A DNA stretch of 64,000 bases from Candidatus Aldehydirespiratoraceae bacterium (lineage in GTDB: Bacteria; Actinomycetota; Acidimicrobiia; Acidimicrobiales; Aldehydirespiratoraceae). The notes below the pieces were generated by a model. It saw nothing but the letters and a program-made list of their open reading frames with translations, did no database searches and was not told the origin of the DNA. A program made the translations under genes and the position numbers. The stretch spans positions 2,431,249 to 2,495,248 of the forward strand of contig OZ241886.1 in the NCBI GenBank assembly GCA_965203375.1. Direction: 5' to 3'. Of the stretch, positions 9,163 through 64,000 are shown in pieces (positions within the stretch are counted from its first letter, which is position 1; each line of letters starts with the position of its first letter).

Positions 9163-9894
9163 TCAGCCGGACTCGGCGTCGTCGCCCTCGGTGTCGACAT
9201 CGGCGGCGTCGTCGCCCTCGGTGTCGACATCGGCGGCGTCGTCGCCCTCGGTGTCGACATCGGCGGCGTCGTCGCCCTCGGTGTCGACATCGGCGGCGTC
9301 GTCGCCCTCGGTGTCGACATCGGCGGCGTCGTCGCCCTCGGTGTCGACATCGGCGGCGTCGTCGCCCTCGGTGTCGACATCGGCGGCGTCGTCGCCCTCG
9401 GTGTCGACATCGGCGGCGTCGTCGCCCTCGGTGTCGACATCGGCGGCGTCGTCGCCCTCGGTGTCGACATCGGCGGCGTCGTCGCCCTCGGTGTCGACAT
9501 CGGCGGCGTCGTCGCCCTCGGTGTCGACATCGGCGGCGTCGTCGGACGAGGAGTCAGCGTCGGCGGCTTCGTCCGTGTCGGTTGAGCCGGCGGCTTCACC
9601 TGCGTCGTCGGCGTCGTCGGCGTCGTCGGTCCGGTCGACCGCCCGGCGCACGACATCGGGGACCCGGCCGCCGGTGAGGTCGTCGATCTTGTCGACCACG
9701 GCCTCGGCCACATCGCCGGCCTTGTGGGCGGCCTTGCCCGCCACATCGCCGGCCTTGTCCCAGACATCACCGGCCACGTCGCCGGCCTTGCCGACCAGGT
9801 CCCCCGCCTTGTCGCGAGCCTTGCTGGCCAGATCGCCCATCACGCCTTTGGCCTTGTCGGCAAAATCCTTGTCGTCCATGTCGTCCTCTCCCAT
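9163..9894 (-). CDS. acidic repeat protein: N-terminal KAGD-repeat (CsbD/LEA-like) region + (DDAADVDTEG)x12 C-terminus
   Basis: ATG at 9894 preceded by GGAGAG RBS; N-term DKAKGVMGDLASKARDKAGDLVGKAGDVAGD...; plus-strand ORFs over the same DNA are mirror frames. Confidence 0.65.
   Translation of the reverse strand: MGEDDMDDKDFADKAKGVMGDLASKARDKAGDLVGKAGDVAGDVWDKAGDVAGKAAHKAGDVAEAVVDKIDDLTGGRVPDVVRRAVDRTDDADDADDAGEAAGSTDTDEAADADSSSDDAADVDTEGDDAADVDTEGDDAADVDTEGDDAADVDTEGDDAADVDTEGDDAADVDTEGDDAADVDTEGDDAADVDTEGDDAADVDTEGDDAADVDTEGDDAADVDTEGDDAADVDTEGDDAESG
9184..9543. repeat. perfect tandem repeat, 30 bp x 12 (coding, in-frame)
   Basis: gccctcggtgtcgacatcggcggcgtcgtc repeated 12 times with no mismatches. 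Confidence 0.95.
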
Positions 9895-17052: not shown

Positions 17053-19500
17053 CTAGCCGCCAGTGGGGTTGAGTTCGCTGCGCCATATTTGTCCTTGATT
17101 GGTGAACTGTCCGGTGCTGATGCTGGCGATATCATAGTCGGGCAGTTCGATCTCCCCTACGCATCTTTGGCCGTCGATGGATCCGTATTCGGTGAAGGCG
17201 AAGTCGAAATTGTCGAATCCGGATTGTCGGCGATGGTCGGGCAGGTTCATTCTGTCAACTGGGAATATATGCACGAAGAAGTCGTCGCTGATATCACCGT
17301 TGTGGCATTGCTCTCGAATGTACATCAAGGTTCTATCGCTGGTGAGATAGACATCAAAGGGGCCGCGAACAGCCTCGATCCGTGAGAGACTGATGACTTG
17401 ATCCGCCCGTTGGTGCAACTCGGCATTGGCTACATGGTCGGGCCCGAAGAATCTCCCACCCCAGATAGGTCCTTCACTGCTGGACTGGCCGGTGCTGATG
17501 CTGGCAATATCATAATCGGGCAGATCAAAAATCACAACATACCGCTCGGCATCCATAATAAGTAGCTCGTGCATAGTGAAACCGTATAATTTGTAATCCT
17601 GACTGGAATCGGAGAGAACATTAGTATCCACAGGATAGACCATCAGATGAACATGATTTGACAGCAATAACGGGTTTATTGTGCAGCGATTTCCGACATA
17701 CAGGAGCTTTCGGTCATCGGTAAGATAGACATCAAAATCACCCCGAACCGCTGGCCCGATTTTTTCGACTATTTTATCTATACGTTCCTCATAAACATGC
17801 CGGTCATACAGGTACATCACCTGATTGTCCGGCGTCAACAAGCCTTGAGCGTCGTTCTGCTTAGGCTGAAGAATGAAATCCACTCTGTACGAACTGATGC
17901 GACAATCACGGCTATCAAATATAAGTCCACTGCCATGCAGATAATAGAACAACCCGCCATACGGCCAGATATAGGGATACCAATCCCAGCCGTGAGGGTC
18001 GTATATAGGGATATCAGGGCGAGTATAGACAAGAATATTCTTTCCATCACTTAACTGTCGGATAGTTTCAACATCATCTACTATCAAACTCTCTATATCA
18101 ATAAAAGCTTTGTCATTAGGACGCTCGATTTCAGCATAGGCTACCTTGTAGCTGGAGGTCACAAACAACACAAATGCACCTACTGCACTTAGCGGTAACA
18201 ACTTTTTACCTTTGCCCGACCATTTATATAATAACGACAGAATCAAGGTATAGAAAACCAAAATTACACCTATATAGTACAAACTCTCAAAAAAGTGCGG
18301 GCCAGTATTGTATCGCATAGGAATCGACCAGCAAAACCCGGAAAGAACCGCGGTCAGAACCAACAGACGATGACGCCTGAGGTGAACCGCCCCGATCACA
18401 CATACCCCGATCATGCTGATTCCCGCCGATGCAGCCCAAGGTATTGTTTTAACCAAGACCGTCCTATCCAAGCTAGACCATGAACCGAACGGCAAGGCAA
18501 AGGGAATCGCCAAGTACGACAATCTCTCCAACTGCGAATAAAGAAAAATATACCACTGCACCTGATATTCGCTGCTCAGCCATCTCCCTATTTCATCCGG
18601 GTTCCCTATGTCTGTTCCGGTGCGTCTCAACGCGGAGTCGATCGATGGCATATCTGATAATGCCAATTGATCGCCCGCCCTAAAGTTGAGGGCATAGTAT
18701 TCATTGGCGATATTGTAAGTTAATATCAATATCCCGAACCCCAGGGTAACAAACCCCAAGGTGAAATAGCGACTAGTCACCGCTCTCGATAAATAGAGTG
18801 ACAATGAGAATCCTTGAATCGTCTTTACCTTCCGAGCTTGGATGATTTCCTTAGTCAAGCCGAGAAGTACGAAAGGCAAGAGCAACGCCAATACATGCCA
18901 ACCCAACAACAAAGCAAGACATGCCTTAACAACCAACTGCCGGAAACGACCATCCTGAACGAAAATCACCATGCCATGAAAGGTGAGCGAAAACCCGAAA
19001 AGGTCGGGCATGATTTCCGGTATCGTCGCGGTAGAATATATCAACACCGTAGAGGATGAGAACCCCAACAAAACTGCCGTCGAAGCAATCCACCGGTTTG
19101 AGATAAGCCGACATAGCGACCAATAGGCCAACACCGCGGTTCCAGCGAAGAACGCCACCATAAGCATTTGAACAGCCGCGACACGAATAGACAAGCCATC
19201 ACCTACAACCAAAGTGATCAACTTCATCAGCATATAGCCACCAGGAGGAAATTTATTGTAGGCCGCATAATCGATACTACCAGATACGTCATAAACCTGA
19301 TTCAGGAACCCCAGGAAATGGTGACTGGGAGAAAGATTGATCGCCGCTGCCATATGTTGATGAGAAAGAAAATAGTTTTCGTTTAGGGTGCCAGTTATCC
19401 TGCCGAATAAAAAAATCGTGGACAACCCGATCAACAACAAGATGAGCGGCAACAACCTCAGCCTCGAAGCCAACCGACCTTGACCTAACGGAGCCACCAA
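17053..19500 (-). CDS. large polytopic membrane protein, paralog B (same architecture as A)
   Basis: TTG start after GGTAGGGGA RBS; same TM and C-terminal motif layout as A, with near-identical nucleotides over the 3'-terminal ~450 bp. Confidence 0.65.
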   Translation of the reverse strand: MVAPLGQGRLASRLRLLPLILLLIGLSTIFLFGRITGTLNENYFLSHQHMAAAINLSPSHHFLGFLNQVYDVSGSIDYAAYNKFPPGGYMLMKLITLVVGDGLSIRVAAVQMLMVAFFAGTAVLAYWSLCRLISNRWIASTAVLLGFSSSTVLIYSTATIPEIMPDLFGFSLTFHGMVIFVQDGRFRQLVVKACLALLLGWHVLALLLPFVLLGLTKEIIQARKVKTIQGFSLSLYLSRAVTSRYFTLGFVTLGFGILILTYNIANEYYALNFRAGDQLALSDMPSIDSALRRTGTDIGNPDEIGRWLSSEYQVQWYIFLYSQLERLSYLAIPFALPFGSWSSLDRTVLVKTIPWAASAGISMIGVCVIGAVHLRRHRLLVLTAVLSGFCWSIPMRYNTGPHFFESLYYIGVILVFYTLILSLLYKWSGKGKKLLPLSAVGAFVLFVTSSYKVAYAEIERPNDKAFIDIESLIVDDVETIRQLSDGKNILVYTRPDIPIYDPHGWDWYPYIWPYGGLFYYLHGSGLIFDSRDCRISSYRVDFILQPKQNDAQGLLTPDNQVMYLYDRHVYEERIDKIVEKIGPAVRGDFDVYLTDDRKLLYVGNRCTINPLLLSNHVHLMVYPVDTNVLSDSSQDYKLYGFTMHELLIMDAERYVVIFDLPDYDIASISTGQSSSEGPIWGGRFFGPDHVANAELHQRADQVISLSRIEAVRGPFDVYLTSDRTLMYIREQCHNGDISDDFFVHIFPVDRMNLPDHRRQSGFDNFDFAFTEYGSIDGQRCVGEIELPDYDIASISTGQFTNQGQIWRSELNPTGG

Positions 19501-31316: not shown

Positions 31317-32684
31317 TCAGTCGGCGGCGTCTTGGGCAACCAGATCGTCGGCCCGGGCCCCGGCCGGGTGTCGGGCGGACGCAGACCGCTGCACACCCTG
31401 GCCGGCGCCCCCTCGGTTGCGCAGGGAGGCGAGGAGGTCCACGCCGGTGGCGGCCTCGATCTGCTCGGTCATCGACACCAGCGAGGCCGGGAGCTGGCTC
31501 AGCAGCCCGGGGATGCCCCCGGCCGACCCGCCGCCGTTGCCGCCGGACGATCCGGCGCCGCTGTCCACCACCGCCACCCGGTCGATGCTCACGCCCTGCA
31601 CCGTGGCCACGATCTTGTCGACCAGCTCGGGCAGCATGTTGAGCACCAGCAGGTCGTGGCCGTCCGCGCCGGCGGCCTGGTACTGCTCGGTGAGGCGGCG
31701 GAACACCTCGACCTGGGCCTTGCCGTCCTCGACGATCCGGGCCGCGTCGGCTTGGGCCTGGAGCTGGCGGGCCTCGAGATCGGCCCGGGCGGGGATGACC
31801 ACGTCGGCCTCCACCCGGCGCTTCTCCAGCTCGATGCGCTCCTGCTCGAGCTGCTGGCTGGCCACCGCCTTGGCCGTCTCGCCGGCCACCAGCGCCTCCT
31901 CCTCCCGGGCCTTGGAGATGGCCTCCAGCTCGGCGGTGCGCACCCGCAGGGCGTTCTGCTCCTCGACGATGGCCTTGTCGGCCTCGATGGTGGCCACCTG
32001 GGCGGCCCGCCGGGCCTCGGCCTCGGCCTGCTCGGACTCGGAGGTGCGGTTGGCCTCGGCCACCCTGGCGTCCTTCACCACCTCGGCGGTGAGCCGCCGC
32101 CCCACCGACTCCAGGTAGTTCACGTCGTCGGTGACGTTCTGGATCTTCAGCACGTCCAGCTCCAGGCCCAGGGTCTTGATGTCGTCGTCGGCCTCGTCGA
32201 TGAGCTGCTGGCTGAACTTGAGCCGGTCCTCGTTCACCTCTTCGGGCGACAGGGTGGCCAGCACGCCGCGGAGGTTGGCCTCGAGGGTCTCCTTGGCGAT
32301 CTGGCCGATGGCCTGGTGCGGGACGTTCAGGAACCGCTCGGCCGCGTTCTCCAGCAGGCTCTCGGTGCTCGACACCTTCACGTTGGCGATGCCCTGGACG
32401 TTGAGTGGGATGGTGCCCCTGGAGTAGGCGTTTGACACCGAGACCTCCAGCGGGATGGTGTTGAGGTCCATCCACGAAACCTTCTCGATGATGGGGATGC
32501 GCATGGTCCGGCCCCCCCGCAGGACGCGGTAGCCGACCAGCCGACCGTCGGACAGCGCCCGCTTGCGGCCGGAGATCACCGCCACCCGGTTGGGGGGGCA
32601 GATGATGATCAGCCGCTTGATGATCAACACGATGAAGATCACGATCAGGGCCAGGATCAGCCCCAGCGTTGTTGGAGTGTTCAC
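31317..32684 (-). CDS. flotillin/SPFH (band 7) family protein
   Basis: N-terminal TM, SPFH domain, long Ala/Glu-rich coiled coil. Confidence 0.85.
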   Translation of the reverse strand: MNTPTTLGLILALIVIFIVLIIKRLIIICPPNRVAVISGRKRALSDGRLVGYRVLRGGRTMRIPIIEKVSWMDLNTIPLEVSVSNAYSRGTIPLNVQGIANVKVSSTESLLENAAERFLNVPHQAIGQIAKETLEANLRGVLATLSPEEVNEDRLKFSQQLIDEADDDIKTLGLELDVLKIQNVTDDVNYLESVGRRLTAEVVKDARVAEANRTSESEQAEAEARRAAQVATIEADKAIVEEQNALRVRTAELEAISKAREEEALVAGETAKAVASQQLEQERIELEKRRVEADVVIPARADLEARQLQAQADAARIVEDGKAQVEVFRRLTEQYQAAGADGHDLLVLNMLPELVDKIVATVQGVSIDRVAVVDSGAGSSGGNGGGSAGGIPGLLSQLPASLVSMTEQIEAATGVDLLASLRNRGGAGQGVQRSASARHPAGARADDLVAQDAAD

Positions 32685-32763
32685 GTTGATGTCCTCGCTT
32701 TCATTCCTCGAGCTCGTTGTCGGCTCTCGTTCTTCGAGCGCTTTCGAGTCCTCATTCCCCGAG

Positions 32764-33324
32764 CTATTCCTCGAGCTCGTTCATGCCCTCGAGCTCGGGG
32801 GCCAGCCGGGTCACCAGCGCGACGCCGTCCTTGACCCCCACCACGATGACCCGGGCGCCCGCCTCGATCTCGCCGCCCTCGCCCTCGTCGACGGGGGCGG
32901 CGGTCATCCGGGCCTGCGACCCGCCGACGTCGAGCACGATCCGGCCCCGGTGTACCGATGAGACGGGCAGGGCCACCCGGGCGATGGTCCCCTCCAGCTC
33001 CTTGTCGGTCACCTCGCTGGACACCTCGGTGCGGCGGAGCCAGGCGAACACGGTGCTGTTGAGGACGCCGGCCACCACCCCGACGGCCAGGGCCAGGCCC
33101 AGCGCGGTCACCGGCCCCGAGCCGGCCCAGCGGGTCAGCAGCCCGGTGACGCCGAAGAAGGTGAGCACGAAGGCCAGGGTGCTCAAGGGGATGACCGACA
33201 TGACTCCGCCGCCGTCGCCGTCGGCGTCGGCGTTGCCGCCCAGGTCGGCGTCTCCCCCGCTGAAGGCGAACCACACCAGCAGCGGGGCCCCGGCCATCAG
33301 CGCGAAGAGGAACAGCCCGTTCAC
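32764..33324 (-). CDS. NfeD-like membrane protein (flotillin partner)
   Basis: TM helices plus C-terminal OB-like domain, immediately upstream of flotillin; GTG start after AGGAGA. Confidence 0.6.
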   Translation of the reverse strand: MNGLFLFALMAGAPLLVWFAFSGGDADLGGNADADGDGGGVMSVIPLSTLAFVLTFFGVTGLLTRWAGSGPVTALGLALAVGVVAGVLNSTVFAWLRRTEVSSEVTDKELEGTIARVALPVSSVHRGRIVLDVGGSQARMTAAPVDEGEGGEIEAGARVIVVGVKDGVALVTRLAPELEGMNELEE

Positions 33325-33367
33325 TCTCCTGAAGCTAGTGTCTGGCCGTGGATTCTGCTCGCCCAGT

Positions 33368-33505
33368 GCCTGAGTTCTCTGCTGTCTTCGGACTCGCCGT
33401 CCCGAGGCGGCGCCGTGAGTTCTCCGTGAGCCCCAGCCCCGTCGTCCCGGGGCGGCGCCGTGAGTCGTCGGTGGGCTTCGGACTCGCTTACCCGGCGGCG
33501 GCGCC
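33368..33505. repeat. ~46-bp imperfect tandem repeats (x3-4) each containing GTGAGT, running into the cyclase start codon
   Basis: units at 33370, 33415, 33460, 33506. Confidence 0.6.
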
Positions 33506-33509
33506 GTGA
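33426..33509 (+). CDS. candidate upstream mini-ORF (27 codons) whose TGA overlaps the cyclase GTG
   Basis: GTG 33426 ... TGA 33507-33509; preceded by a 4-codon ORF (33415-33429) with the same GTGA overlap. Confidence 0.3.
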   Translation: MSPSPVVPGRRRESSVGFGLAYPAAAP

Positions 33510-34468
33510 GTTTCAGCCCGGCTTTCTTCGAGGTCAGGGACCGGGTCCGCAACTGGGGGCGGTGGGGGGACGACGACCGGCTCGGCACCTTGAACCTGAT
33601 CGACGACGCGGCGGTGGCCCATGCCGCCTCGCTGGTGCGGTCCGGGCGGCGGGTGTCGTGCGCCCTGGAACTGAAGCACGAGGGCGGGGTGCAGATCGGG
33701 CAGATGCACGGCCGGATCAACCCGCTGCACGCCATGGTGAAGATCGACAGCCCCGACCTCGGCGACCCCGACGGCAAGGGGCTGGTCGCCCACTTCTCCG
33801 ACGACATCGTGACCATGGCTCTGCAGGCCGCCACCCACTGGGACGGGCTGTCCCACGTGAGCTACGAGCACACCCTCTACAACGGGGTGTCGGTCGACAC
33901 CATCACCGCGGTGGGCGGGGCCACGGTGCTGGGCATCGAGAACGTCCGCTGGCTGACCGGGCGGGGCGTGCTGCTGGACGTGGCCGCGGCCCGGGGGGTG
34001 GAGCGGCTGCCCAGCGACTGCGAGGTCACCGGGGCCGACCTCGACGAGGCGGCGGAGTTCGGGGGGGTGGAGATGCGGCCGGGCGACATCGTGCTGCTGC
34101 GGACCGGGCGGATGCAGGTGTTCCGCGAGATGGGGGCCACGGAGTACGTCGCCGGCCCCGACCGCGACGGCACCAGCCCCGGGCCGGGCCTGGACGCGGT
34201 GGAGTGGTTCCACCGCCGCGACGTGGCCGCCGTGGCCAACGACACCTACATCTTCGAGGCGTTCCCCGGCCCCAGATGGGACGACGCCCTGGCCGTTCAC
34301 TGCCTGCACGTGGTGGACATGGGCATGACCCAGGGCCAGAACTGGGACCTGGAGGAGCTGTCGGCAGCCTGCGCGGCCGAGGGCCGCTACGAGTTCCTGT
34401 TGGCCGCCAACCCCGAGCCGTTCGTCGGCGGCTGCGGCTCCCCAGTCAACCCGGTGGCGATCTTCTAA
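33506..34468 (+). CDS. cyclase family protein (kynurenine-formamidase-like fold)
   Basis: cyclase family (PF04199)-like sequence with His-rich metal-site residues; GTG start. Confidence 0.75.
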   Translation: MSFSPAFFEVRDRVRNWGRWGDDDRLGTLNLIDDAAVAHAASLVRSGRRVSCALELKHEGGVQIGQMHGRINPLHAMVKIDSPDLGDPDGKGLVAHFSDDIVTMALQAATHWDGLSHVSYEHTLYNGVSVDTITAVGGATVLGIENVRWLTGRGVLLDVAAARGVERLPSDCEVTGADLDEAAEFGGVEMRPGDIVLLRTGRMQVFREMGATEYVAGPDRDGTSPGPGLDAVEWFHRRDVAAVANDTYIFEAFPGPRWDDALAVHCLHVVDMGMTQGQNWDLEELSAACAAEGRYEFLLAANPEPFVGGCGSPVNPVAIF

Positions 34469-34617
34469 CCAGAGGTTGTTTCGGCGACGGGCTCGGCCGC
34501 CGACTCGCAGCTCGACCGCAGTCTCCTCGTGTCCGACCCACAGTGTCCGCCGAGTGGTGGGCTTTGCGGTAGCCGCAGGGGTCCGCCCCGAGTGGGCCAT
34601 CGGCGAGGTGTACGCTG

Positions 34618-35844
34618 GTGACAATGGGGGGAGGAGCCATCGGTGCCCAGATCCGGGGGCTGAGGGAGGCTGTGGGTTGCGAGCGATCGGCTCTGGCTGA
34701 GGCGCTGGGGCTCGATCCCGCCGAGATGGCGGAGATGGAGTTCGGCCGCCGGGCTGTCCGGGCGGAGGATGTCGCGGCCGCTGCTGAGTTCTTGGGCGTC
34801 TCACAACTGGCGATCCTGCAGCCGGGGTCGCTGCTCGGACGGCTCGCGGTGGCTGCCCGCACGAACGGTCACGGTGAACCGGACCGGGGGGCGGTGATGC
34901 GCCTGACGGCTCTGGCGGAACTGAGCCATGTGCTGACCCAAGGCGGCCACCCCCCTCCTCTTGCCCCGTCCGGCACCGACGGGGCACCTGAGGGTAAGCC
35001 GGGCCAGTCGTGGCTGAGCCGCGCTCGCGACCTGGCCGAATGGGCCGTCGGGCAGTTCGGCTCAGGTTGGAGGCAGGGCCACCCGCTGCCCGATCTGGCC
35101 GAAGCCATAGAGGACAGCCTGAGCGTTGATGTGATGGTGGAGGGCCTCGGCGGCACCGGGGCGCCGCTAGGCGTTTCCATAACCGACGCGGATTTCCCCT
35201 TCATCATGGTCAACGCCGATCAGCCCACCCCTCGGGCGCTGTTCTCCCTGGCCCACGAGTTGGGCCACGTTTTGAGCCGAGACGGCTACGCGCTGCGAAT
35301 CGACAACCACTTTCGGGCGCCCAACGACAGCGAACGGGCAGCCAACGCCTTCGCCGCCAGCCTGCTGATGCCCGAGGACGACGTGCGCCGCACCGTCGCC
35401 CAGCACGGTCGCACTGCCGAGTCTTTGGCCCGGATGCTCATTGACTTCGGTGTGAGCTATGAGTCGCTCATCTACCGGTTGCACAATCTGAGACTCATCA
35501 ACGCCAACGGCCGAGACCGTCTCAAAGCCGTGGGCTGGGCTGGCCTCATGAACGCCGTCAACGACGCCGGTGTCACCAAAGCGTTGCTCTCTGCTCGGGG
35601 CACTCGACCGGCGCGACGGCCTCCCATCCTGCTGGCGAGGCGATGTCTGCGCGGAGCGCTGGACGGAACGGTGAGCGCGGCCCCGCTGGCAAGGCTGCTC
35701 AACGCCGACATCGACGAAATAATCGACAAGATCGACTCGATAGGACCTGAATCCGCTGCCGCGATCAACGATAACTACTCGTCGCCACCCGATCCTGACG
35801 ATGTCGCCCACTCGGCTTTAGACGACGATCCCTTAGCCGTGTAG
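34618..35844 (+). CDS. XRE-family HTH fused to ImmA/IrrE-family zinc metallopeptidase
   Basis: HTH region IRGLREAVGCERSALAEALGL...; HEXXH as LAHELGHVL. Confidence 0.8.
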   Translation: MTMGGGAIGAQIRGLREAVGCERSALAEALGLDPAEMAEMEFGRRAVRAEDVAAAAEFLGVSQLAILQPGSLLGRLAVAARTNGHGEPDRGAVMRLTALAELSHVLTQGGHPPPLAPSGTDGAPEGKPGQSWLSRARDLAEWAVGQFGSGWRQGHPLPDLAEAIEDSLSVDVMVEGLGGTGAPLGVSITDADFPFIMVNADQPTPRALFSLAHELGHVLSRDGYALRIDNHFRAPNDSERAANAFAASLLMPEDDVRRTVAQHGRTAESLARMLIDFGVSYESLIYRLHNLRLINANGRDRLKAVGWAGLMNAVNDAGVTKALLSARGTRPARRPPILLARRCLRGALDGTVSAAPLARLLNADIDEIIDKIDSIGPESAAAINDNYSSPPDPDDVAHSALDDDPLAV

Positions 35845-36424: not shown

Positions 36425-37377
36425 GAGCATGCGCGGATTGCTCAGGGGTTTGGGTTCCAGCGGTTGCGGTGGTTGATGAGTTTGGCGGTGAGGATGCAGG
36501 CGATGGCGAGGGCGAGTTGGGCTCGTCGGTGGTGGGGACGGCGGTCGGTGTTGCGTCGGAGTTGCCCGAAGTTCGACAGCCATGAGTTGGTGCGTTCGAT
36601 GCTCCAGCGCCGGCCGAGGGGCACGGGCCGGGGCCCGGCGGCGCCTGGGGAGCGTCTTTGGGGGCAGGCGACGTCGGCGATGCCCGCGTCGGCGCACAGG
36701 CGGCGCGCAGTGGCGCTGTCATAGCCGCGGTCTAGGTGCAGGGTCTCGATGCCCTGGAGCAGTCCCCGCCGGCCGGCGGCTCGCAGGGTGGGTTCCAGCA
36801 GGGTCAGGTCACAGCGGTTGGCGCCGTCGAGCGCGGCTACGGCCGGTATGCCCCAACGGTCGGTCAAAAGCGACCACTTGAACCCGAGTTTGCCCCTGTC
36901 AACAGGGCTTTTGCCGGTTCCTTCGCCTCCGCAGGGGGCCTTGTGGATTGACCCGTCGATGCAGGCTTCGGTCAGGTCCAGCCCCACGATGCGGTCATAG
37001 GCCTCGACGGCTTCGTCTTCGAGGTCCTCGAACACCCCCGCGGCGATCCATTCGTCGCGGCGGGCCCGCATGGTGGTGTCAGACACCCGGCCCCCCAACA
37101 GCTTCTCCGCGGTGACCCATGAGCAGCCGGTGACCAGCCGGGTGAGCATCCCCCAAAAACAGATCCGGTCCGGGATCCGCGGCCTGTGCCCCCGGGTTGA
37201 GGGTCTCTGTGCCCGGACCGGGACCCGGGACTTGATCGCGGCCCACACCGCATCCACCACCTCAGGAACCAACGCGCGCATGATGTAGCCGGCCTCCACG
37301 GTCGTCTTGTTGCTGACACCCCGACATACAAGCCGGGACAACCAGACGACCCGTGGATGGTCAATCCGCGCGCGCTC
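36425..37377. mobile_element. IS5-family insertion sequence (IS1031-like), intact
   Basis: 16-bp terminal inverted repeats GAGCATGCGCGGATTG / CAATCCGCGCGCGCTC with 14/16 matches; 3-bp TAA direct repeats at 36422-36424 and 37378-37380. Confidence 0.8.
36442..37281 (-). CDS. IS5-family DDE transposase
   Basis: HLDRGYDS and RWSIERTNSWL motifs; ~280 aa single ORF. Confidence 0.8.
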   Translation of the reverse strand: MRALVPEVVDAVWAAIKSRVPVRAQRPSTRGHRPRIPDRICFWGMLTRLVTGCSWVTAEKLLGGRVSDTTMRARRDEWIAAGVFEDLEDEAVEAYDRIVGLDLTEACIDGSIHKAPCGGEGTGKSPVDRGKLGFKWSLLTDRWGIPAVAALDGANRCDLTLLEPTLRAAGRRGLLQGIETLHLDRGYDSATARRLCADAGIADVACPQRRSPGAAGPRPVPLGRRWSIERTNSWLSNFGQLRRNTDRRPHHRRAQLALAIACILTAKLINHRNRWNPNP

Positions 37378-37752
37378 TAAGCCGGGCGACATCGTGCTGC
37401 CGCAGAAGGCGGAAGCAGTAGCCGTGGATCGTGCCCACGAACAGGCCCCCGATCCGTGAGATGGCCACCTCGGTGCTTGACAGCGGCCAGTGCGTCGCCC
37501 TCCAGGGTTGGCACGTCCATCCGCTCATTGTGCCGGGAGGATGCTCTACCCGCCGCAGCCTCAAAGATTTTTCCGAACGGGCGTTGTGACTGTCACAGGG
37601 GTCTGATACATTGTCGCTACCGGTCGTGGAACCTCGCAGGCGGAATCGTCAGCGGGTTCCGGCGCTTCCCCGGACCGGTGAAATCGCCAGCGCAGGCCGG
37701 CCCCAGGACCGACCCGGCTCCTTCGGGAGTTGGGCTTGCGAGGAAGCGCAAC

Positions 37753-48565: not shown

Positions 48566-49072
48566 TCAGGGCAGGAACCGGCTGACCGACTCGACCACGC
48601 AGGCCGGCTTCTCCGCGCCCTCGATCTCCACGGTGATGGTGATGACCGCCTGCACTCCCCCGCCGGGCAGTTCGGATACCTCGGTGACCACGGCCGAGCC
48701 CCGAACCCTAGACCCCGCCGTCACCGGATGCGGGAACCTCACCCGGTTGACGCCGTAGTTGATCCCCATCGAGATCCCCTCCACCCGCATGACCTCCGGG
48801 AGGAAGAGGCTGGTGAGGGCCAGGGTCAGATAGCCGTGGGCGATAGTGGCCCCGAACGGCCCCTTCGCCGCGGCCTGCGGATCGACGTGGATCCACTGGT
48901 GGTCGCCGGTGGCCTCCGCGAACAGGTTTATGCGGTCCTGGTCGATGGTGATCCAGTCGCTGTTCCCGAGATGGCGGCCGACGGCGCCGAGCAGTTCCCG
49001 GGGGGAGGCGAACACGGCAGTCACCCGCCCGACGCTACCGGGCCACCGGCCGAGGTCACCGGCCGAGGTCAC
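48566..49072 (-). CDS. MaoC-like (R)-hydratase / hot-dog fold protein
   Basis: hot-dog fold, ...DHQWIHVD...GATIAHG. Confidence 0.75.
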   Translation of the reverse strand: MTSAGDLGRWPGSVGRVTAVFASPRELLGAVGRHLGNSDWITIDQDRINLFAEATGDHQWIHVDPQAAAKGPFGATIAHGYLTLALTSLFLPEVMRVEGISMGINYGVNRVRFPHPVTAGSRVRGSAVVTEVSELPGGGVQAVITITVEIEGAEKPACVVESVSRFLP

Positions 49073-49095
49073 CGGCCGAGGTCACCGGCCGCCCT
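49041..49095. repeat. 13-bp direct repeat x3.5 (ACCGGCCGAGGTC) in divergent promoter region
   Basis: four consecutive units overlapping the putative MaoC start. Confidence 0.7.
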
Positions 49096-49207: not shown

Positions 49208-50305
49208 GTGGCGGCAGGCGGAGGCACCAAGGCGATCCTGGCCGCCCTGTTCGCCAACCTCGGGATAGCCATCGCCAAGTTCGTCGCCTTCGCCTTCACC
49301 CGGTCGTCGTCGATGCTGGCTGAGGCCATCCACAGCGTGGCCGACACCTCCAACCAGGCCCTGCTGCTGCTGGGCGGCCGCCTGGCCCGCCGGGACGCCA
49401 CCGACGAGCACCAGTTCGGGTTCGGGCGGGAGCGCTACTTCTGGTCCTTCGTGGTGGCCTTGGTGCTGTTCTCGGTGGGATCGCTGTTCGCCCTCTGGGA
49501 GGGCGTGGAGAAGATCCGCCACCCCCACGAGATCGACTCGCCCCTCTGGGCCATCTCGGTGCTGTCCATCGGCATCGTGCTGGAGGGCTTTTCCTTCAGA
49601 ACCGCCATCGTCGAGTCGAACCGCATCCGGGGCTCGGCCTCCTGGACGGCCTTCATCCGCCGATCCCGGACCCCGGAGCTGCCGGTGGTGCTGCTGGAGG
49701 ATCTCGGCGCCATGATCGGCCTGGTTTTCGCCCTGACCGCGGTGAGCATCGCCACCGTCTTCGACGCCCCGGTGTGGGACGGGATCGGCACCCTGTCCAT
49801 CGGCGTGCTGCTGGGGGCCATCGCCGTGGTGCTGATGGTGGAGATGCGCAGCCTGCTGCTGGGAGAGTCGGCCGGCAAGGCCGACGCCGCCGCCATCCGG
49901 GCCGCCATCTCCTCCACCGAGGGGGTGGAGAGGCTGATCCACCTGCGCACCCAGCACCTCGGGCCCGACGAGCTGCTGGTGGCGGCCAAGGTGCAGTTCG
50001 ACCCCGGCTACACCACCGCCGAACTGGCCGCGGCCATCGACCGGGTGGAAACCAACACCCGCCGGGCCGTGCCCATCGCCAGCCCCATGTACGTGGAACC
50101 CGGCATCGGGCAGGTCGAGGGCTCCGAGGAAGAGCACTCCGAAGGCGACGGCCCCGAAGGCGAACACTCCGAGGACGGCCAAGCCCGGGGCAGCGAAGGC
50201 AGCGGTTTCGCAAGCGAGAGCCCCGAAGGCGGCGAGGACGACGGCCCCGAAGGCGGCGAGGACGACGGCCCCGAAGGCGGCGACCGGGCCCGAGACCGGG
50301 AATGA
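49208..50305 (+). CDS. cation diffusion facilitator (CDF) transporter with acidic C-terminal tail
   Basis: 6 TM + C-terminal cytoplasmic domain; GTG start; tail EGSEEEHSEGDGPEGE... Confidence 0.8.
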   Translation: MAAGGGTKAILAALFANLGIAIAKFVAFAFTRSSSMLAEAIHSVADTSNQALLLLGGRLARRDATDEHQFGFGRERYFWSFVVALVLFSVGSLFALWEGVEKIRHPHEIDSPLWAISVLSIGIVLEGFSFRTAIVESNRIRGSASWTAFIRRSRTPELPVVLLEDLGAMIGLVFALTAVSIATVFDAPVWDGIGTLSIGVLLGAIAVVLMVEMRSLLLGESAGKADAAAIRAAISSTEGVERLIHLRTQHLGPDELLVAAKVQFDPGYTTAELAAAIDRVETNTRRAVPIASPMYVEPGIGQVEGSEEEHSEGDGPEGEHSEDGQARGSEGSGFASESPEGGEDDGPEGGEDDGPEGGDRARDRE

Positions 50306-51131: not shown

Positions 51132-52103
51132 ATGAGCACAAATGACATGGGCTTAGACACGGACACATTCGGGCCGGTAGTAGCTGCCGGCTGGCTGGCC
51201 GACAACCTCGACTCGGTGGTGGTCGCCGACGTGCGGTGGTACCTGGACGGCCGCTCGGGCCGGGACGCCTACGACCGGGGCCACCTGCCGGGGGCCCGCT
51301 TCGTGGACCTCGACACCGACCTATCCGGGCGCTCCACAACCGTCGGGGGCCGCCATCCCCTGCCCGACCCCAACCGCTTCGCCGAGGCCATGGGCCGCCT
51401 CGGCATTGGCGACGGCGACCCGGTGGTGGTCTACGACGACGCCGGCGGGGTGATCGCGGGTCGGATGTGGTGGATGCTCGACTCGCTGGGACATCCCGCG
51501 GCGGTGCTCGACGGCGGCATCGGGGCCTGGGCCGGGCCGCTGGAGACGGCCCCGGCCGCCTGGGCGCCGGCTGAGTTCACCCCCCGGCCCTGGCCCGAGA
51601 ACCGCTTCGTCGGCATCGACGAGATGGACCGCCTCCGGGACCGGCCCGGCGCCGTGGTCATCGACGCCCGCTCGCCCGAGCGCTACCGGGGCGACCCCAA
51701 CCCCATCGACCCCCGCTTCGGCCATGTGCCCGGGGCGCTGAACATGCCCGCCACCGCCAACCTGGCCGCCAACGGCAGGCTGCTGCCCGCGACCGAACTG
51801 CGGGCCCGCTACACGGCCATCGGCGCCGCCGAACCGGGCGCAGAAACACCAGGCGCCGAGGCGGAAACATCGGGCGCAGAAACACCGGGCGCAGAATCCC
51901 CCGACCCAGGGGCGTCCAACTCCTCCAACATCATCGCCTACTGCGGCAGCGGCGTGTCGGCCTGCTGCGATCTGCTGGCCCTGCGCCGGGCCGGACTGGG
52001 CAACGGGCGGCTGTTCGTGGGGTCGTGGTCGGCCTGGGGCGCCGATCCCGCCCGGCCCGTCGAAACCAGCCAGCCTGCGGTCGGCGGCAGCCACGGCGGT
52101 TGA
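51132..52103 (+). CDS. two-domain rhodanese sulfurtransferase (3-mercaptopyruvate-ST-like)
   Basis: active-site loop CGSGVSA; low-complexity PGAE insertion. Confidence 0.8.
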   Translation: MSTNDMGLDTDTFGPVVAAGWLADNLDSVVVADVRWYLDGRSGRDAYDRGHLPGARFVDLDTDLSGRSTTVGGRHPLPDPNRFAEAMGRLGIGDGDPVVVYDDAGGVIAGRMWWMLDSLGHPAAVLDGGIGAWAGPLETAPAAWAPAEFTPRPWPENRFVGIDEMDRLRDRPGAVVIDARSPERYRGDPNPIDPRFGHVPGALNMPATANLAANGRLLPATELRARYTAIGAAEPGAETPGAEAETSGAETPGAESPDPGASNSSNIIAYCGSGVSACCDLLALRRAGLGNGRLFVGSWSAWGADPARPVETSQPAVGGSHGG

Positions 52104-52159
52104 TGCCGCCAGCCGCCACCGACACCGGCGCCGACCCGCTGCGCCCAAACCCCGCCTGA
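52103..52159 (+). CDS. leader mini-ORF 1 (18 aa, MPPAATDTGADPLRPNPA), copy of the Ppx N-terminus
   Basis: ATG shares A with rhodanese TGA; its own TGA shares A with the next ATG. Confidence 0.4.
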   Translation: MPPAATDTGADPLRPNPA

Positions 52160-52215
52160 TGCCGCACCCAGCCACCGACACGGGCGCCGACCCGCTGCGC
52201 CCAAACCCCGCCTGA
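52159..52215 (+). CDS. leader mini-ORF 2 (18 aa, MPHPATDTGADPLRPNPA)
   Basis: second 56-bp tandem unit; TGA overlaps Ppx ATG (TGATG). Confidence 0.4.
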   Translation: MPHPATDTGADPLRPNPA

Positions 52216-53966
52216 TGCCGCACCCCGCCACCGACACGGGCGCCGACCCGCTGCGCCCAGACCCCAAACCGCTGGCCGCCATCGACGTGGGCACCAACTC
52301 GGTACACATGGTGGTGGCCCGGCCCGTTCCCGGCGGTCCGCCCGACTTCCTGGCCACAGAACGCATGCCGGTGCGGCTGGGCTCGGGCGGCAACGACATG
52401 AAGCGGCTCCACCCCGACGCCGTCGACCGGGCCGTGGCCGCCCTCGACGAGTGCCGCCGCATCGCCGAGGCCCACCAGGCCGACGTGGTGGCGGTGGCCA
52501 CCAGCGCGGTGCGCGAGGCGGCCAACGCCGCCGACTTCCTGCGCCGGGCCCGCACCGAGGCCGGCGTGGCGGTGGAGGTGGTGTCGGGGGTGGAGGAGGC
52601 CCGCCTGATCCACCTGGGGGCCATGAGCGCGGTGCCCATCGCGGGCCGGCCCCATCTGGTGATCGACATCGGGGGCGGGTCCACCGAGGTGATCGCCGGC
52701 ACCGGCACCGAGCCGGCCCTGGCCCGCAGCCTGAAGCTGGGCCACATCCGCCTCACCGACCGGTTCTTCCCCGGCGGAGTCGTCAAGCCCGGGGCGGTGA
52801 AGTCCTGCCGCCGCCACATCCAGTCCTTCATCGCCCCGTTCCTGCGGGAGATGCCCGAGTTCGAGACGGCGGTGGGCTGCTCGGGCACCATCGAGGCCCT
52901 GGCCCTGATGGGGGCGGCCCGCCGGGGCGCGCCCCTGCGGACGGTGGGCAACGCCGCCCTCGCCCGCGGTGACCTCGACGCGGTGGTGGCCGACCTCGTG
53001 TCCCGTCCCCGCCCGGCCGACCGGGCCGGGGCGCCCGGACTCGACCCGGGCCGGGCCGAGGTGATCGTGGCCGGCGCCGTCCTGCTCCGCCAGATGTTCA
53101 AGGCCCTGGGCATTCGCACCCTAACCGTGTCCACCGGGGCGCTGCGGGAGGGGCTGCTGCTGGACAGGTTTCACCGGAGGGACCGGTCGCCGGCCCGCGG
53201 GCTGCACCACCTCAACGACCTGCGGCGGTCCAGCGTGCTGGCCGTCGCCCGCCGCTACGACCAGGACCTCGCCCACGCCGAGCACTCCACCAACCTGGCC
53301 CTGGAGCTCTTCGACGAGACCCGGCCGATCCACGGGCTGGACGAGGCCGAGCGGGAGGTGCTGGAGGCGGCCGGGCTGCTGCACAACATCGGGCGGTTCG
53401 TGGCCCACGCCGCCCACCACCAGCACTCCTACTACCTGATCCGCCACAGCGAGCAGCTCGCCGGGTTCACCGAGAACGAGCTGGAGCTGATCGCCCAGGT
53501 GGCCCGCTACCACCGCAAGAGCGCCCCCCGCAAGTCCCACCCGAGCTTCGCCGGGCTGGACCGGGCCGATCAGCGGCGGGTCCGGCTGCTGGCCGGGATG
53601 CTGCGGGTGGGGATCGCCCTGGACCGCACCTACCGGCGTGCGGTGCGCCACGTCTCCGCCGACACCGACGACCGGGGCCTGCGGATCGCAGGTCCACACG
53701 ATCGCCGGCACCGACGCCGAGCTGGAGATGTTCACCGCCCGGGACCGCTGCGGCCTGCTGGCCGACGCCCTGGACCGCCCGGTGCGCTTCGAGATAACGC
53801 CATACGGCCTCGGGCAGTCCGGGCAAACCGAAGCCGCCGCGGCGACCGAGACCGCGCCGTCGGCCCTCAGCCGCAGAGCCGGATGACGCCACCGGACCGC
53901 CCCGGCGTGCTTTCCAGGCTGGTTCCAGGCCGGGCGCGATCCCAGCTCAGCCGCAGGGCTGGATGA
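52215..53966 (+). CDS. Ppx/GppA exopolyphosphatase with C-terminal HD domain; probable frameshift near 53687-53692
   Basis: AIDVGTNSVHMVVAR actin-like ATPase fold N-terminus, HD region HN.G..V....HH; after ~53690 the +1 frame (53638..53886) reads protein-like while frame 0 becomes Arg/Pro junk. Confidence 0.75.
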   Translation: MPHPATDTGADPLRPDPKPLAAIDVGTNSVHMVVARPVPGGPPDFLATERMPVRLGSGGNDMKRLHPDAVDRAVAALDECRRIAEAHQADVVAVATSAVREAANAADFLRRARTEAGVAVEVVSGVEEARLIHLGAMSAVPIAGRPHLVIDIGGGSTEVIAGTGTEPALARSLKLGHIRLTDRFFPGGVVKPGAVKSCRRHIQSFIAPFLREMPEFETAVGCSGTIEALALMGAARRGAPLRTVGNAALARGDLDAVVADLVSRPRPADRAGAPGLDPGRAEVIVAGAVLLRQMFKALGIRTLTVSTGALREGLLLDRFHRRDRSPARGLHHLNDLRRSSVLAVARRYDQDLAHAEHSTNLALELFDETRPIHGLDEAEREVLEAAGLLHNIGRFVAHAAHHQHSYYLIRHSEQLAGFTENELELIAQVARYHRKSAPRKSHPSFAGLDRADQRRVRLLAGMLRVGIALDRTYRRAVRHVSADTDDRGLRIAGPHDRRHRRRAGDVHRPGPLRPAGRRPGPPGALRDNAIRPRAVRANRSRRGDRDRAVGPQPQSRMTPPDRPGVLSRLVPGRARSQLSRRAG

Positions 53967-62877: not shown

Positions 62878-64000
62878 ATGATCTCCGATCGCCAGGCCCA
62901 CCCGTCCTGCAATCGCCTTCAAATGGGTCGGGGCATAGAAATCCCGGCCGGTTCGGCCAGCATTAGGTCCTGGCCAGCCTCTGGTATTGTCAAGATAGCC
63001 CACGGTGCATGCGATGATCGGGAACGGCGCAAGACCCATATGCCTCGTTTGACTACTTTACTGGTCTGTGCGCTGATCGCTGGACTATTGTCACAAGTGA
63101 CAACTCCCGTAGTAGTCCATGCTCAGGCGGCGAGCAATGCGGCGATTCCAAGAGAACCGTGCATGGTGTCTGCAACCACTGAAGACGTAGTTTCACGGCC
63201 AAGACGACCGGTCCTATTGGCCTCGTCTTTCTACAGCGGCACCATTACTGTCGCATGGGACTGCCCGCGGGCGCAAGACCAAGTCCTCTGGTACCAATAC
63301 CGCTACAAGATCGGGCCTGGCATGTCGTCAGGCTGGATTAAATTGCCACCGACGGCTCGTAGCCTGACCCTGACCGTCCTGGACCGTGACACCCGGCACT
63401 ACGTGGTTCTGCGAGCCGTCAACAGCGCGGGTCCAGGCAACAGTGTCTTAGCCTACCCCCGGGTTCCCCCTCCACCTGGTTTCTGGTTCTCCGACGACGG
63501 CGGGAGCGTCTACGAGGGCGCTATTGAGGCCGTCGCCGCCGCGGGCATCGCCCCCGGGTGCCGACACAACCTCTATTGCCCCGCCGATCCGATGACCAGA
63601 GGCCAGTTCGCTTCCCTCCTGGTACGAGCCTTCCCCGACCTGATCCCCGACGACGCCGAAAACTACTTCTCCGACGACAACGGGACCGTCCACGAGATCG
63701 CCATCAACCGGCTGGCCTCCGCGGGTATAACCGCGGGCTGCAAGCCGGGCCGGTACTGCCCCGCCGATCCGATGCGGCGCGACCAAGCGGCGACGCTGCT
63801 GGCCCGGGCCCTCCCCGGCCTGATTCCGCCCAACGGGGATCATTTCTCCGACGACGACGGGACCGTCCACGAGATCGCCATCAACGTGTTGGCTGAAAAC
63901 GGCATCGTCTCCGGCTGCGGGCCGGGCCGGTACTGCCCCGCCGATCCGATGCGGCGCGATCAGGCGGCGGCGCTGCTGGCCCGGGCCCTCAACCTGGAGA
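62878..64000 (+). CDS. surface protein paralog 4 (paralog-2-like, one FN3), 3'-partial at window edge
   Basis: no stop in frame from 62878 to the window end; alternative start ATG 63040 (MPRLTTLLVCALIAGLL...AQAA signal peptide). Confidence 0.6.
   Translation, partial: MISDRQAHPSCNRLQMGRGIEIPAGSASIRSWPASGIVKIAHGACDDRERRKTHMPRLTTLLVCALIAGLLSQVTTPVVVHAQAASNAAIPREPCMVSATTEDVVSRPRRPVLLASSFYSGTITVAWDCPRAQDQVLWYQYRYKIGPGMSSGWIKLPPTARSLTLTVLDRDTRHYVVLRAVNSAGPGNSVLAYPRVPPPPGFWFSDDGGSVYEGAIEAVAAAGIAPGCRHNLYCPADPMTRGQFASLLVRAFPDLIPDDAENYFSDDNGTVHEIAINRLASAGITAGCKPGRYCPADPMRRDQAATLLARALPGLIPPNGDHFSDDDGTVHEIAINVLAENGIVSGCGPGRYCPADPMRRDQAAALLARALNLE

Follow-up and report, generated by a model that had tools for sequence, protein, structure and literature searches.

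A 45-bp tandem repeat array within a probably leaderless and coupled upstream reading frame of a cyclase-family gene in an Acidimicrobiia bacterium

In a 64,000-nucleotide stretch of contig OZ241886.1 from a Candidatus Aldehydirespiratoraceae bacterium, referred to here as the window, the start codon of a cyclase-family gene stands at the downstream end of an array of short tandem repeats, between that gene and a divergently transcribed NfeD-like gene. All coordinates below are those of the window, and loci of relatives are labelled L001, L002, and so on. We consider it likely that the array is a locally born 45-bp minisatellite, lying within a conserved and probably leaderless upstream open reading frame (uORF) that is translationally coupled to the cyclase gene. 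The principal features of the locus are:

33332-33341 (both strands): conserved 10-bp core, AAGCTAGTGT, containing two overlapping -10-like hexamers
33348-33509 (+): uORF of 53 codons plus TGA, encoding VDSARPVPEFSAVFGLAVPRRRREFSVSPSPVVPGRRRESSVGFGLAYPAAAP followed by the stop, taken from the ORF listing; it holds the whole repeat array
33370-33414 (+): repeat unit 1, 45 nt, opening with CTGAGT
33415-33459 (+): repeat unit 2, 45 nt, with an internal GTGAG at 33426
33460-33505 (+): repeat unit 3, 46 nt, whose extra base shifts the uORF frame onto the final TGA
33506-33509 (+): GTGA tetramer, in which the uORF stop TGA (33507-33509) overlaps the cyclase start GTG (33506-33508)
33506-34468 (+): cyclase-family gene (PF04199, Pfam E = 6.7e-20), kynurenine-formamidase-like, 320 aa

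Tandem Repeats Finder reports the array at 33371-33512, with a period of 45, 3.1 copies, 71% matches, and a score of 136, and a separate repeat search recovers three in-register copies at 45-bp spacing. An exact 15-mer, GGCGGCGCCGTGAGT, recurs at 33406, 33451, and 33497; when up to two mismatches are allowed, the chance expectation for this 15-mer is 1.18 matches per whole window. It includes the palindrome GGCGCC and constitutes a junction of Shine-Dalgarno (SD)-like sequence, start, and stop. An earlier, sequence-only reading of the window had described the cyclase start as embedded in tandem repeats of about 46 bp. The repeats are real by all three measures, and the start context does lie within them, with a measured period of 45/45/46 in place of about 46. 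That reading also assigned GTGAGT to every unit, which is correct at 33415, 33460, and 33506; position 33370 reads CTGAGT. A fourth unit is present only as the seven nucleotides GTGAGTT after 33505, and similarity beyond GTGAGTT into the cyclase coding sequence (CDS) is not significant (p = 0.15-0.74). The stretch between the -10-like hexamer and unit 1 was tested as a diverged "unit 0", again without significance. An assembly artefact is excluded: L001, L002, and L098, independent assemblies of the window's species, carry the array unchanged, and other strains carry variants of it. The contigs of L099 and L100 break inside the array, which is compatible with an extra unit and not proof of one. 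In L097, units 1 and 2 are identical save for the first base, a sign of duplication or conversion in the recent past. The window is unusually rich in other tandem repeats, several without mismatches, for instance at 9174-9544, 52101-52265, 50220-50283, 49044-49091, and 63667-63990; in one a 30-nt unit is repeated 12.4 times with 100% identity, and others hold 2.9 copies of 56 nt, 2.7 of 24 nt, 3.7 of 13 nt, and 1.8 of 177 nt.

The first in-frame start of the reading frame that ends at 33509 is GTG 33348. The 27-codon ORF originally proposed to begin at GTG 33426 exists as a frame and represents merely the 3' half of the 53-codon ORF 33348-33509; its stop at 33507-33509 overlaps the cyclase GTG 33506 as GTGA, as proposed. 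Also as proposed, GTG 33415 opens a short ORF whose stop overlaps GTG 33426. Two ORFs outside the frame of the uORF deserve listing:

33415-33429 (+): 4-codon mini-ORF in the pseudo-start frame, VSSP followed by a stop, with TGA 33427-33429 overlapping GTG 33426
33460-34572 (+): out-of-frame 370-codon ORF from the unit 3 GTG, running through the cyclase CDS

The frame of the VSSP ORF differs from that of the uORF. This ORF is missing in L097, where the GTG that opens VSSP elsewhere instead opens a 289-codon out-of-frame ORF, and it is probably an incidental by-product. The relevant unit is then one 53-codon ORF, in place of the pair of nested uORFs first described. The 370-codon ORF translates into Arg/Gly/Pro-rich nonsense; it is spurious, a trap for gene callers. 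The true start of the cyclase gene is 33506, because more than 80 homologues begin MSF[ST]..., and the PF04199 match and independent gene calls back the same start. Cyclase predictions from sister strains (proteins P0108, P0109, and P0110) are misled by the repeats: an indel brings an upstream GTG or TTG into frame, and the predicted proteins are lengthened N-terminally to 348 aa and 326 aa.

Upstream of the array, the 10-bp core contains the plus-strand hexamer TAGTGT (33336-33341) and the minus-strand hexamer TAGCTT (33337 down to 33332), which share bases. The pattern AAGCTAGT[AGC]T is kept in the window and in L091, L094, L095, L097, L101, L107, L108, and L004-L007. Variants of the core occur in L003, L093, and L104, and the core can be written AAGCTAGTRT. 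On each strand a start codon follows the -10-like hexamer by 6-7 nt. GTG 33348 lies 6 nt downstream of TAGTGT, and a TAG..T hexamer precedes an RTG by 6-7 nt at about 12 related loci as well as in the window. We read the core as a likely bidirectional promoter in which two -10 elements overlap; the 53-codon uORF is probably leaderless, with GTG 33348 as the predicted 5' end of the transcript. Within the window, the more general pattern TAnnnT-N6/7-RTG is enriched at the starts of long ORFs (15/27 vs 19/110, p = 1e-4), and by this enrichment it plausibly marks leaderless genes in the genome. Many of its genes are probably leaderless, the HTH_31-Peptidase_M78 gene (ATG 34624) among them. A scan for sigma-70 consensus promoters and terminators, which demands E. 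coli-like hexamers, found nothing. The sequence-only reading had located the repeats within a divergent promoter. The conserved core at 33332-33341 lies upstream of them, and the repeats are better described as transcribed and probably translated sequence. The predicted transcription start likewise falls upstream of the repeats and not downstream, in keeping with that reading.

Other leaderless-type motif starts in the window include 39303, 42240, 58338, 62878, and 34624 on the plus strand and 16512 and 3034 on the minus strand. At 60716 (+), a 64-codon ORF at such a motif is joined by ATGA to a 653-codon ORF; the pair shares promoter and N-terminus with the gene at 58338, of which it may be a frameshifted paralogue. 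At 18704 (-), a 25-codon ORF at such a motif is joined by TTGA to a 525-codon ORF, and the promoter and peptide start of this ORF recur at 16244 (-).

Relatives whose cyclase is 79-93% identical to that of the window have the same layout, with uORFs of 8-53 codons that are unrelated in sequence. The uORF ends exactly on the cyclase RTG in these loci:

L004: 8 codons
L007: 15 codons
L091: 20 codons
L093: 28 codons
L103: 29 codons
Window, L095, L097, L098, and L101: 53 codons

An RTGA overlap occurs at the cyclase start in L004, L007, L091, L093, L094, L103, and L108. Two of these loci carry two-step chains joined by GTGA (8 then 42 codons in L094, 8 then 16 codons in L108), in which the TGA of the 8-codon ORF overlaps a pseudo-start GTG and the ORF from the pseudo-start ends on the true start. 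The start codon is absent at the uORF start position in L003, L104, L105, and L107. Among all 80 homologue loci of the genome collection, only L004 and L007 carry the plus-strand architecture, which is therefore confined to a close clade with NfeD-like divergent synteny.

Unrelated tandem repeats are seen at three of the related loci. A 15-nt unit within the coupled uORF of L093 (2847-3000) encodes PTSSD three times, L007 has a unit of about 28 nt on its minus-strand uORF, and in L107 a 17-nt unit precedes the cyclase gene. These repeats are of independent origin.

By sequence comparison, and beyond what the sequence-only reading had noticed, the stop-on-start arrangement is conserved in relatives that lack the window's repeats and is mirrored on the other strand, where the core faces a second gene:

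32764-33324 (-): NfeD-like membrane protein gene, 186 aa, whose N-terminus aligns with the MTWLYAFMLA.. of relatives

A minus-strand ATG or GTG 6-7 nt after TAGCTT opens uORFs in L003-L007, L104, and L107 (17, 17, 25, 25, 40, 13, and 27 codons, respectively), which are unrelated in sequence and whose stops all overlap the NfeD-like start as ATGA. L091 and L108 carry a duplicate of the NfeD-like start region, and the promoter-proximal copy opens an ORF of 25 or 24 codons, respectively, that ends in GTGA on the real NfeD-like start. We infer that in these relatives the minus-strand -10 drives a second leaderless uORF, coupled to the NfeD-like gene. In the window, the NfeD-like GTG 33324 sits 7 nt after the minus-strand TAGCTT, and the NfeD-like gene is itself predicted to be leaderless. 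The predicted divergent starts are about 24 bp apart.

Taking both strands together, 15 of 17 distinct ORF lengths fall in the coupling frame, where one third would do so by chance (binomial p = 4.5e-6, computed over lineages that are related, so that the length classes are not fully independent). The window array adds 136 nt (45+45+46), and a 1-nt deletion at 33370 brings the sum to 135 nt, or 45 codons, which restores the frame. At the junction position of unit 1, L094 and L108 read GCGCCGTGA and the window reads GTGCC-TGA; on this alignment, the start of unit 1 is an ancestral stop/start junction disabled by the 1-nt deletion. Unit 3 is 46 nt long in every three-unit strain. The strength of the SD sequence varies with the presence of the uORF. 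The SD duplex is weak at the window's cyclase start (-5.6 kcal/mol) and at coupled cyclase starts generally (-6.3 to +0.1 kcal/mol), and strong in the loci where the uORF start codon is missing (L003, L104, L105, and L107; -8.3 to -11.8 kcal/mol), all energies presupposing a standard 16S 3' tail. The contrast between coupled and uncoupled starts gives a Mann-Whitney p of 0.019, or 0.069 when the exception L103, which has both a coupled uORF and a strong SD, is included.

What is maintained does not appear to be the peptide. In strains with arrays of equal length, 27 of 162 uORF sites are variable, divided 9/13/5 among the codon positions, and in the cyclase CDS 39 of 960 sites are variable, divided 6/5/28. 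No family match was found for the uORF peptide. The peptide is not conserved and seems not to matter; the start position, the open frame, and the placement of the stop on the next start codon are what is kept. This suggests that the uORF serves only to hand ribosomes to the cyclase gene.

In the mechanism we propose, RNA polymerase would use the -10-like TAGTGT (33336-33341) and start at G33348. The transcript would then begin with GUG and, in this organism as well, could load ribosomes without a leader, a 5'-terminal RTG being sufficient for ribosome loading in Actinomycetota, as established for mycobacteria (PMC4633059). Ribosomes would translate the 53 codons, an observed open frame, over the three units; having terminated at UGA 33507-9, they would begin again at GUG 33506, which overlaps that stop (GUGA). 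Termination-reinitiation would in this way supply ribosomes to a cyclase start whose SD is weak.

Several observations weigh against this interpretation. The -10 assignment hangs on the short TAnnnT pattern, and the evidence for a transcription start site at 33348 and for uORF translation consists of conservation and spacing. The uORF has no coding signature, its GC content by codon position (0.75/0.63/0.77) being as in untranslated DNA. Possible internal starts at 33415 and 33460 run out of frame and are not consistently avoided. The uORF of L005 and L006 stops 11 nt into the CDS, a +11 overlap and not an RTGA. To these must be added the points already attached to the figures above, namely the relatedness of the lineages in the frame test, the assumed 16S tail, and the behavior of L103.

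In an alternative that we judge unlikely, the minisatellite would be neutral and would lie in a 5' leader or spacer that is not translated, and its frames and GTGA overlaps would be incidental results of duplicating a GTGA junction in high-GC, stop-poor DNA. The window is rich in tandem repeats, with 22 Tandem Repeats Finder rows scoring at least 60, and the same intergenic region of L007, L093, and L107 bears the unrelated repeats described above. The rate of change in the array is about four times that in the CDS, third codon positions are not favored, and a GC3 signature is lacking; at 68% GC, frames that stay open for about 50 codons are not unusual. However, neutrality leaves unexplained why 15 of 17 lengths on two strands are in the coupling frame, why the RTG is always 6-7 nt after a conserved -10-like hexamer, why SD strength is inverse to uORF presence, and why, in the window lineage, a deletion of 1 nt makes up for the 46-nt unit.

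The origin of the units can be traced in sister strains. Copies of the cyclase 5' 17-mer, matching at 15 of 17 positions, are found at -35 in L091, -125 in L094, and -80 in L101. The -80 copy of L101 occupies the position of the window's GTG 33426, where the match is 12/17, and by this correspondence the cyclase start has left a decayed copy of itself at the window's GTG 33426. Because such copies lie inside the arrays, the units are best read as products of repeated tandem duplication of the stop/start junction ..GGCGCC/GTGAGTTTCAGCCC.. (the slash marks the junction here and below). Within one 90%-identity protein cluster, L091 and L108 have a single unit (35 and 47 nt, respectively), whereas L094 has three (34/44/47 nt), as does the window (45/45/46 nt). 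A comparison of the units with the leaders of L003-L007 gave only a weak match of unit 1 to L003 (p = 0.023, uncorrected over 15 tests), on which we do not rely. We propose that an array is retained only if its overall length leaves the coupling frame intact.

A more ambitious interpretation, to which we give little credence, is that the array is a selected, frame-aware variable-number repeat that serves cyclase translation as a contingency switch. Adding or losing a 45-nt unit (15 codons) would tune uORF length with coupling intact. Changes of 1 nt, or units of 46 or 47 nt, would flip the ribosome stream among coupled, N-terminally fused (the 348-aa form of L094), and dead-end states. Strains would thereby switch or grade cyclase output through the geometry of termination-reinitiation, and the other arm would have its equivalent in the duplicated NfeD-like start of L091 and L108.

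It is very improbable that the array began as a mobile element of the mycobacterial interspersed repetitive unit (MIRU) type, inserted at the cyclase start codon and then amplified. The resemblance lies in tandem units of 45-46 bp and in an ORF through the units that couples to the gene start at -4 nt; a review of MIRUs describes insertion at start codons with such -4 coupling (PMC12548453). In addition, metagenomic units in L086 and L089 end GGAGGAGCGGCGCC/ATGAGT, close to the window's CCCGAGGCGGCGCC/GTGAGT. The 12-mer shared with those units was, however, imposed by the search pattern, and unit interiors are unrelated to the MIRU consensus. No further copy of the 45-bp unit occurs within the 64-kb window. 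The cyclase 17-mer copies within units and the one-unit sister states L091 and L108 point to local duplication, and the coupled uORF, present in L004 and L007, is older than the repeats. A metagenome scan for the doubled junction motif found eight loci, none from this organism; two are mycobacterial and of MIRU type, and the others are unrelated repeats. The MIRU-type units (L086 899-962 and L089 1821-1883) are each followed by a downstream gene that starts at the ATG of the junction.

We give scarcely any weight to the possibility that the direct repeats are binding sites, iteron-like or operator-like, for a regulator of the divergent cyclase and NfeD-like/flotillin promoters, for instance the neighboring HTH_31-Peptidase_M78 protein. 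Three exact 15-mers with the palindrome GGCGCC at 45-bp spacing in a divergent intergenic region, with an HTH-domain gene immediately downstream of the cyclase gene, would suit such a role. But the units vary strongly between strains of one 90% protein cluster, are absent in relatives with the same gene pair and promoter core, and lie downstream of the conserved -10 core. The HTH-M78 neighbor is not syntenic in L091 or L093, and the conserved 15-mer coincides exactly with the SD-like, start, and stop junction. Least probable of all is a structured leader RNA (riboswitch or attenuator) with hairpins controlling cyclase expression: units 1 and 2 can each form a hairpin covering GAGG or GGGG (unit 2, z = -2.3), but the whole leader is no more stable than its shuffles (z = 0.11), folding of the leader and of each unit on both strands gives hairpins that differ between units with none shared, an Rfam scan of 32000-35000 with E up to 10 returned chance-level hits (best 20 bits vs a gathering threshold of 70), and the leader sequence is not conserved among relatives.

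The genes around the locus complete the picture of its setting. Beyond the NfeD-like gene lies one further member of the divergent operon:

31317-32684 (-): Band_7/flotillin gene (PF01145, E = 3.1e-20), downstream of the NfeD-like gene

The 186-aa protein matches the NfeD family (PF01957) below threshold, at 13.4 bits vs a cutoff of 29.1 (E = 0.095). The position of its gene upstream of the Band_7 gene fits an NfeD-like role, with family membership unproven. With that qualification, the earlier description of the locus as a divergent region shared with an NfeD-flotillin operon is supported. On the other side, the HTH_31-Peptidase_M78 gene directly follows the cyclase gene. The closest genomes are metagenome-assembled genomes (MAGs) of Acidimicrobiales, some labelled Candidatus Aldehydirespirator. 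Farther downstream, at 36442-37392 (-), an IS4/5-family transposase gene (DUF4096 + DDE_Tnp_1) is present in the window and in L001. L002, otherwise identical to L001, has a DUF222 gene in its place; by this comparison, the transposase gene is a strain-level insertion polymorphism.

If a minisatellite within a coupled, leaderless uORF is the correct interpretation, the content and length of such a uORF are free (8-53 codons, minisatellite expansion included), and the start at the 5' end and the stop on the next start codon are fixed, on both arms of one compact bidirectional promoter. The locus would then amount to a natural evolution experiment, and would provide comparative evidence from outside mycobacteria that such ORFs deliver ribosomes to SD-poor genes. 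It would also suggest a simple, local origin for MIRU-like coupled repeats, in which a stop/start junction is duplicated. For annotation, repeats of this kind lead gene callers into two sorts of error, spurious N-terminal lengthening of the cyclase (to 348 aa and 326 aa) and a phantom ORF of 370 codons.

Four described systems stand close to the locus. Bidirectional promoters with overlapping -10 elements are most commonly of an 18-bp class, and a 23-bp class is also noted (Warman et al., bioRxiv 10.1101/2020.01.31.928960). The core resembles these promoters in that -10-like hexamers of opposite strands share bases, and the predicted starts, about 24 bp apart, are near the 23-bp class. It differs in that the transcripts of both sides, from starts that are here inferred, would be leaderless and, in relatives, would each begin with a coupled uORF.

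MIRUs are repeats that insert at start codons, with an internal ORF coupling at -4 (2025 review PMC12548453, summarising Supply et al. 1997); their units, of about 46-101 bp, stand in tandem at intergenic sites. The array shares with them tandem units of about 45-50 bp at a gene start (here 45/45/46 bp), an ORF through the units, the -4 overlap (here GTGA), and a unit end in which an SD-like GAGG is followed by GGCGCC and then RTGAGT. Similarity to the consensus does not extend beyond the junction GAGG..GGCGCC/RTGAGT, 12 bases of which were imposed by the search pattern. MIRUs are dispersed, apparently mobile, and share a consensus, whereas the array is single-copy in the window and appears to derive from the cyclase gene's own start. 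MIRUs are also usually intercistronic; here the upstream gene is divergent, and the ORF is first in its predicted transcript.

In Mycobacterium tuberculosis, expression of PPE2, a gene without an SD, requires a uORF that overlaps it at AUGA, the link being termination-reinitiation (Kipkorir et al. 2024, PMC11260477). The cyclase gene resembles PPE2 in lacking a good SD. Unlike the leadered uPPE2, which lies behind a B12 riboswitch, the uORF described here has no riboswitch and is predicted to be leaderless.

A close parallel is with the mycobacterial leaderless "coupled" small ORFs, which are joined by RTGA to the next gene and in which the architecture is kept and the peptide is not (Shell et al. 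2015, PMC4633059). As in those ORFs, an RTG at the predicted 5' end of the mRNA opens a short ORF whose TGA shares an RTGA tetramer with the start of the downstream gene (here at 33506), and the architecture is conserved across species (frame test, p = 4.5e-6) while the peptide is not. The window's uORF departs from the mycobacterial examples in its length, which at 53 codons is just above their limit of 5-50 aa (relatives have 8-29 codons), in its occurrence in an Acidimicrobiia MAG, in its minisatellite expansion, and in having a 5' end that is predicted. It is further distinguished by its pairing with a mirror-image coupled uORF, or with a leaderless gene, on the same 10-bp core. On this comparison, the uORF is a probable member of the "leaderless coupled ORF" kind and not a MIRU.

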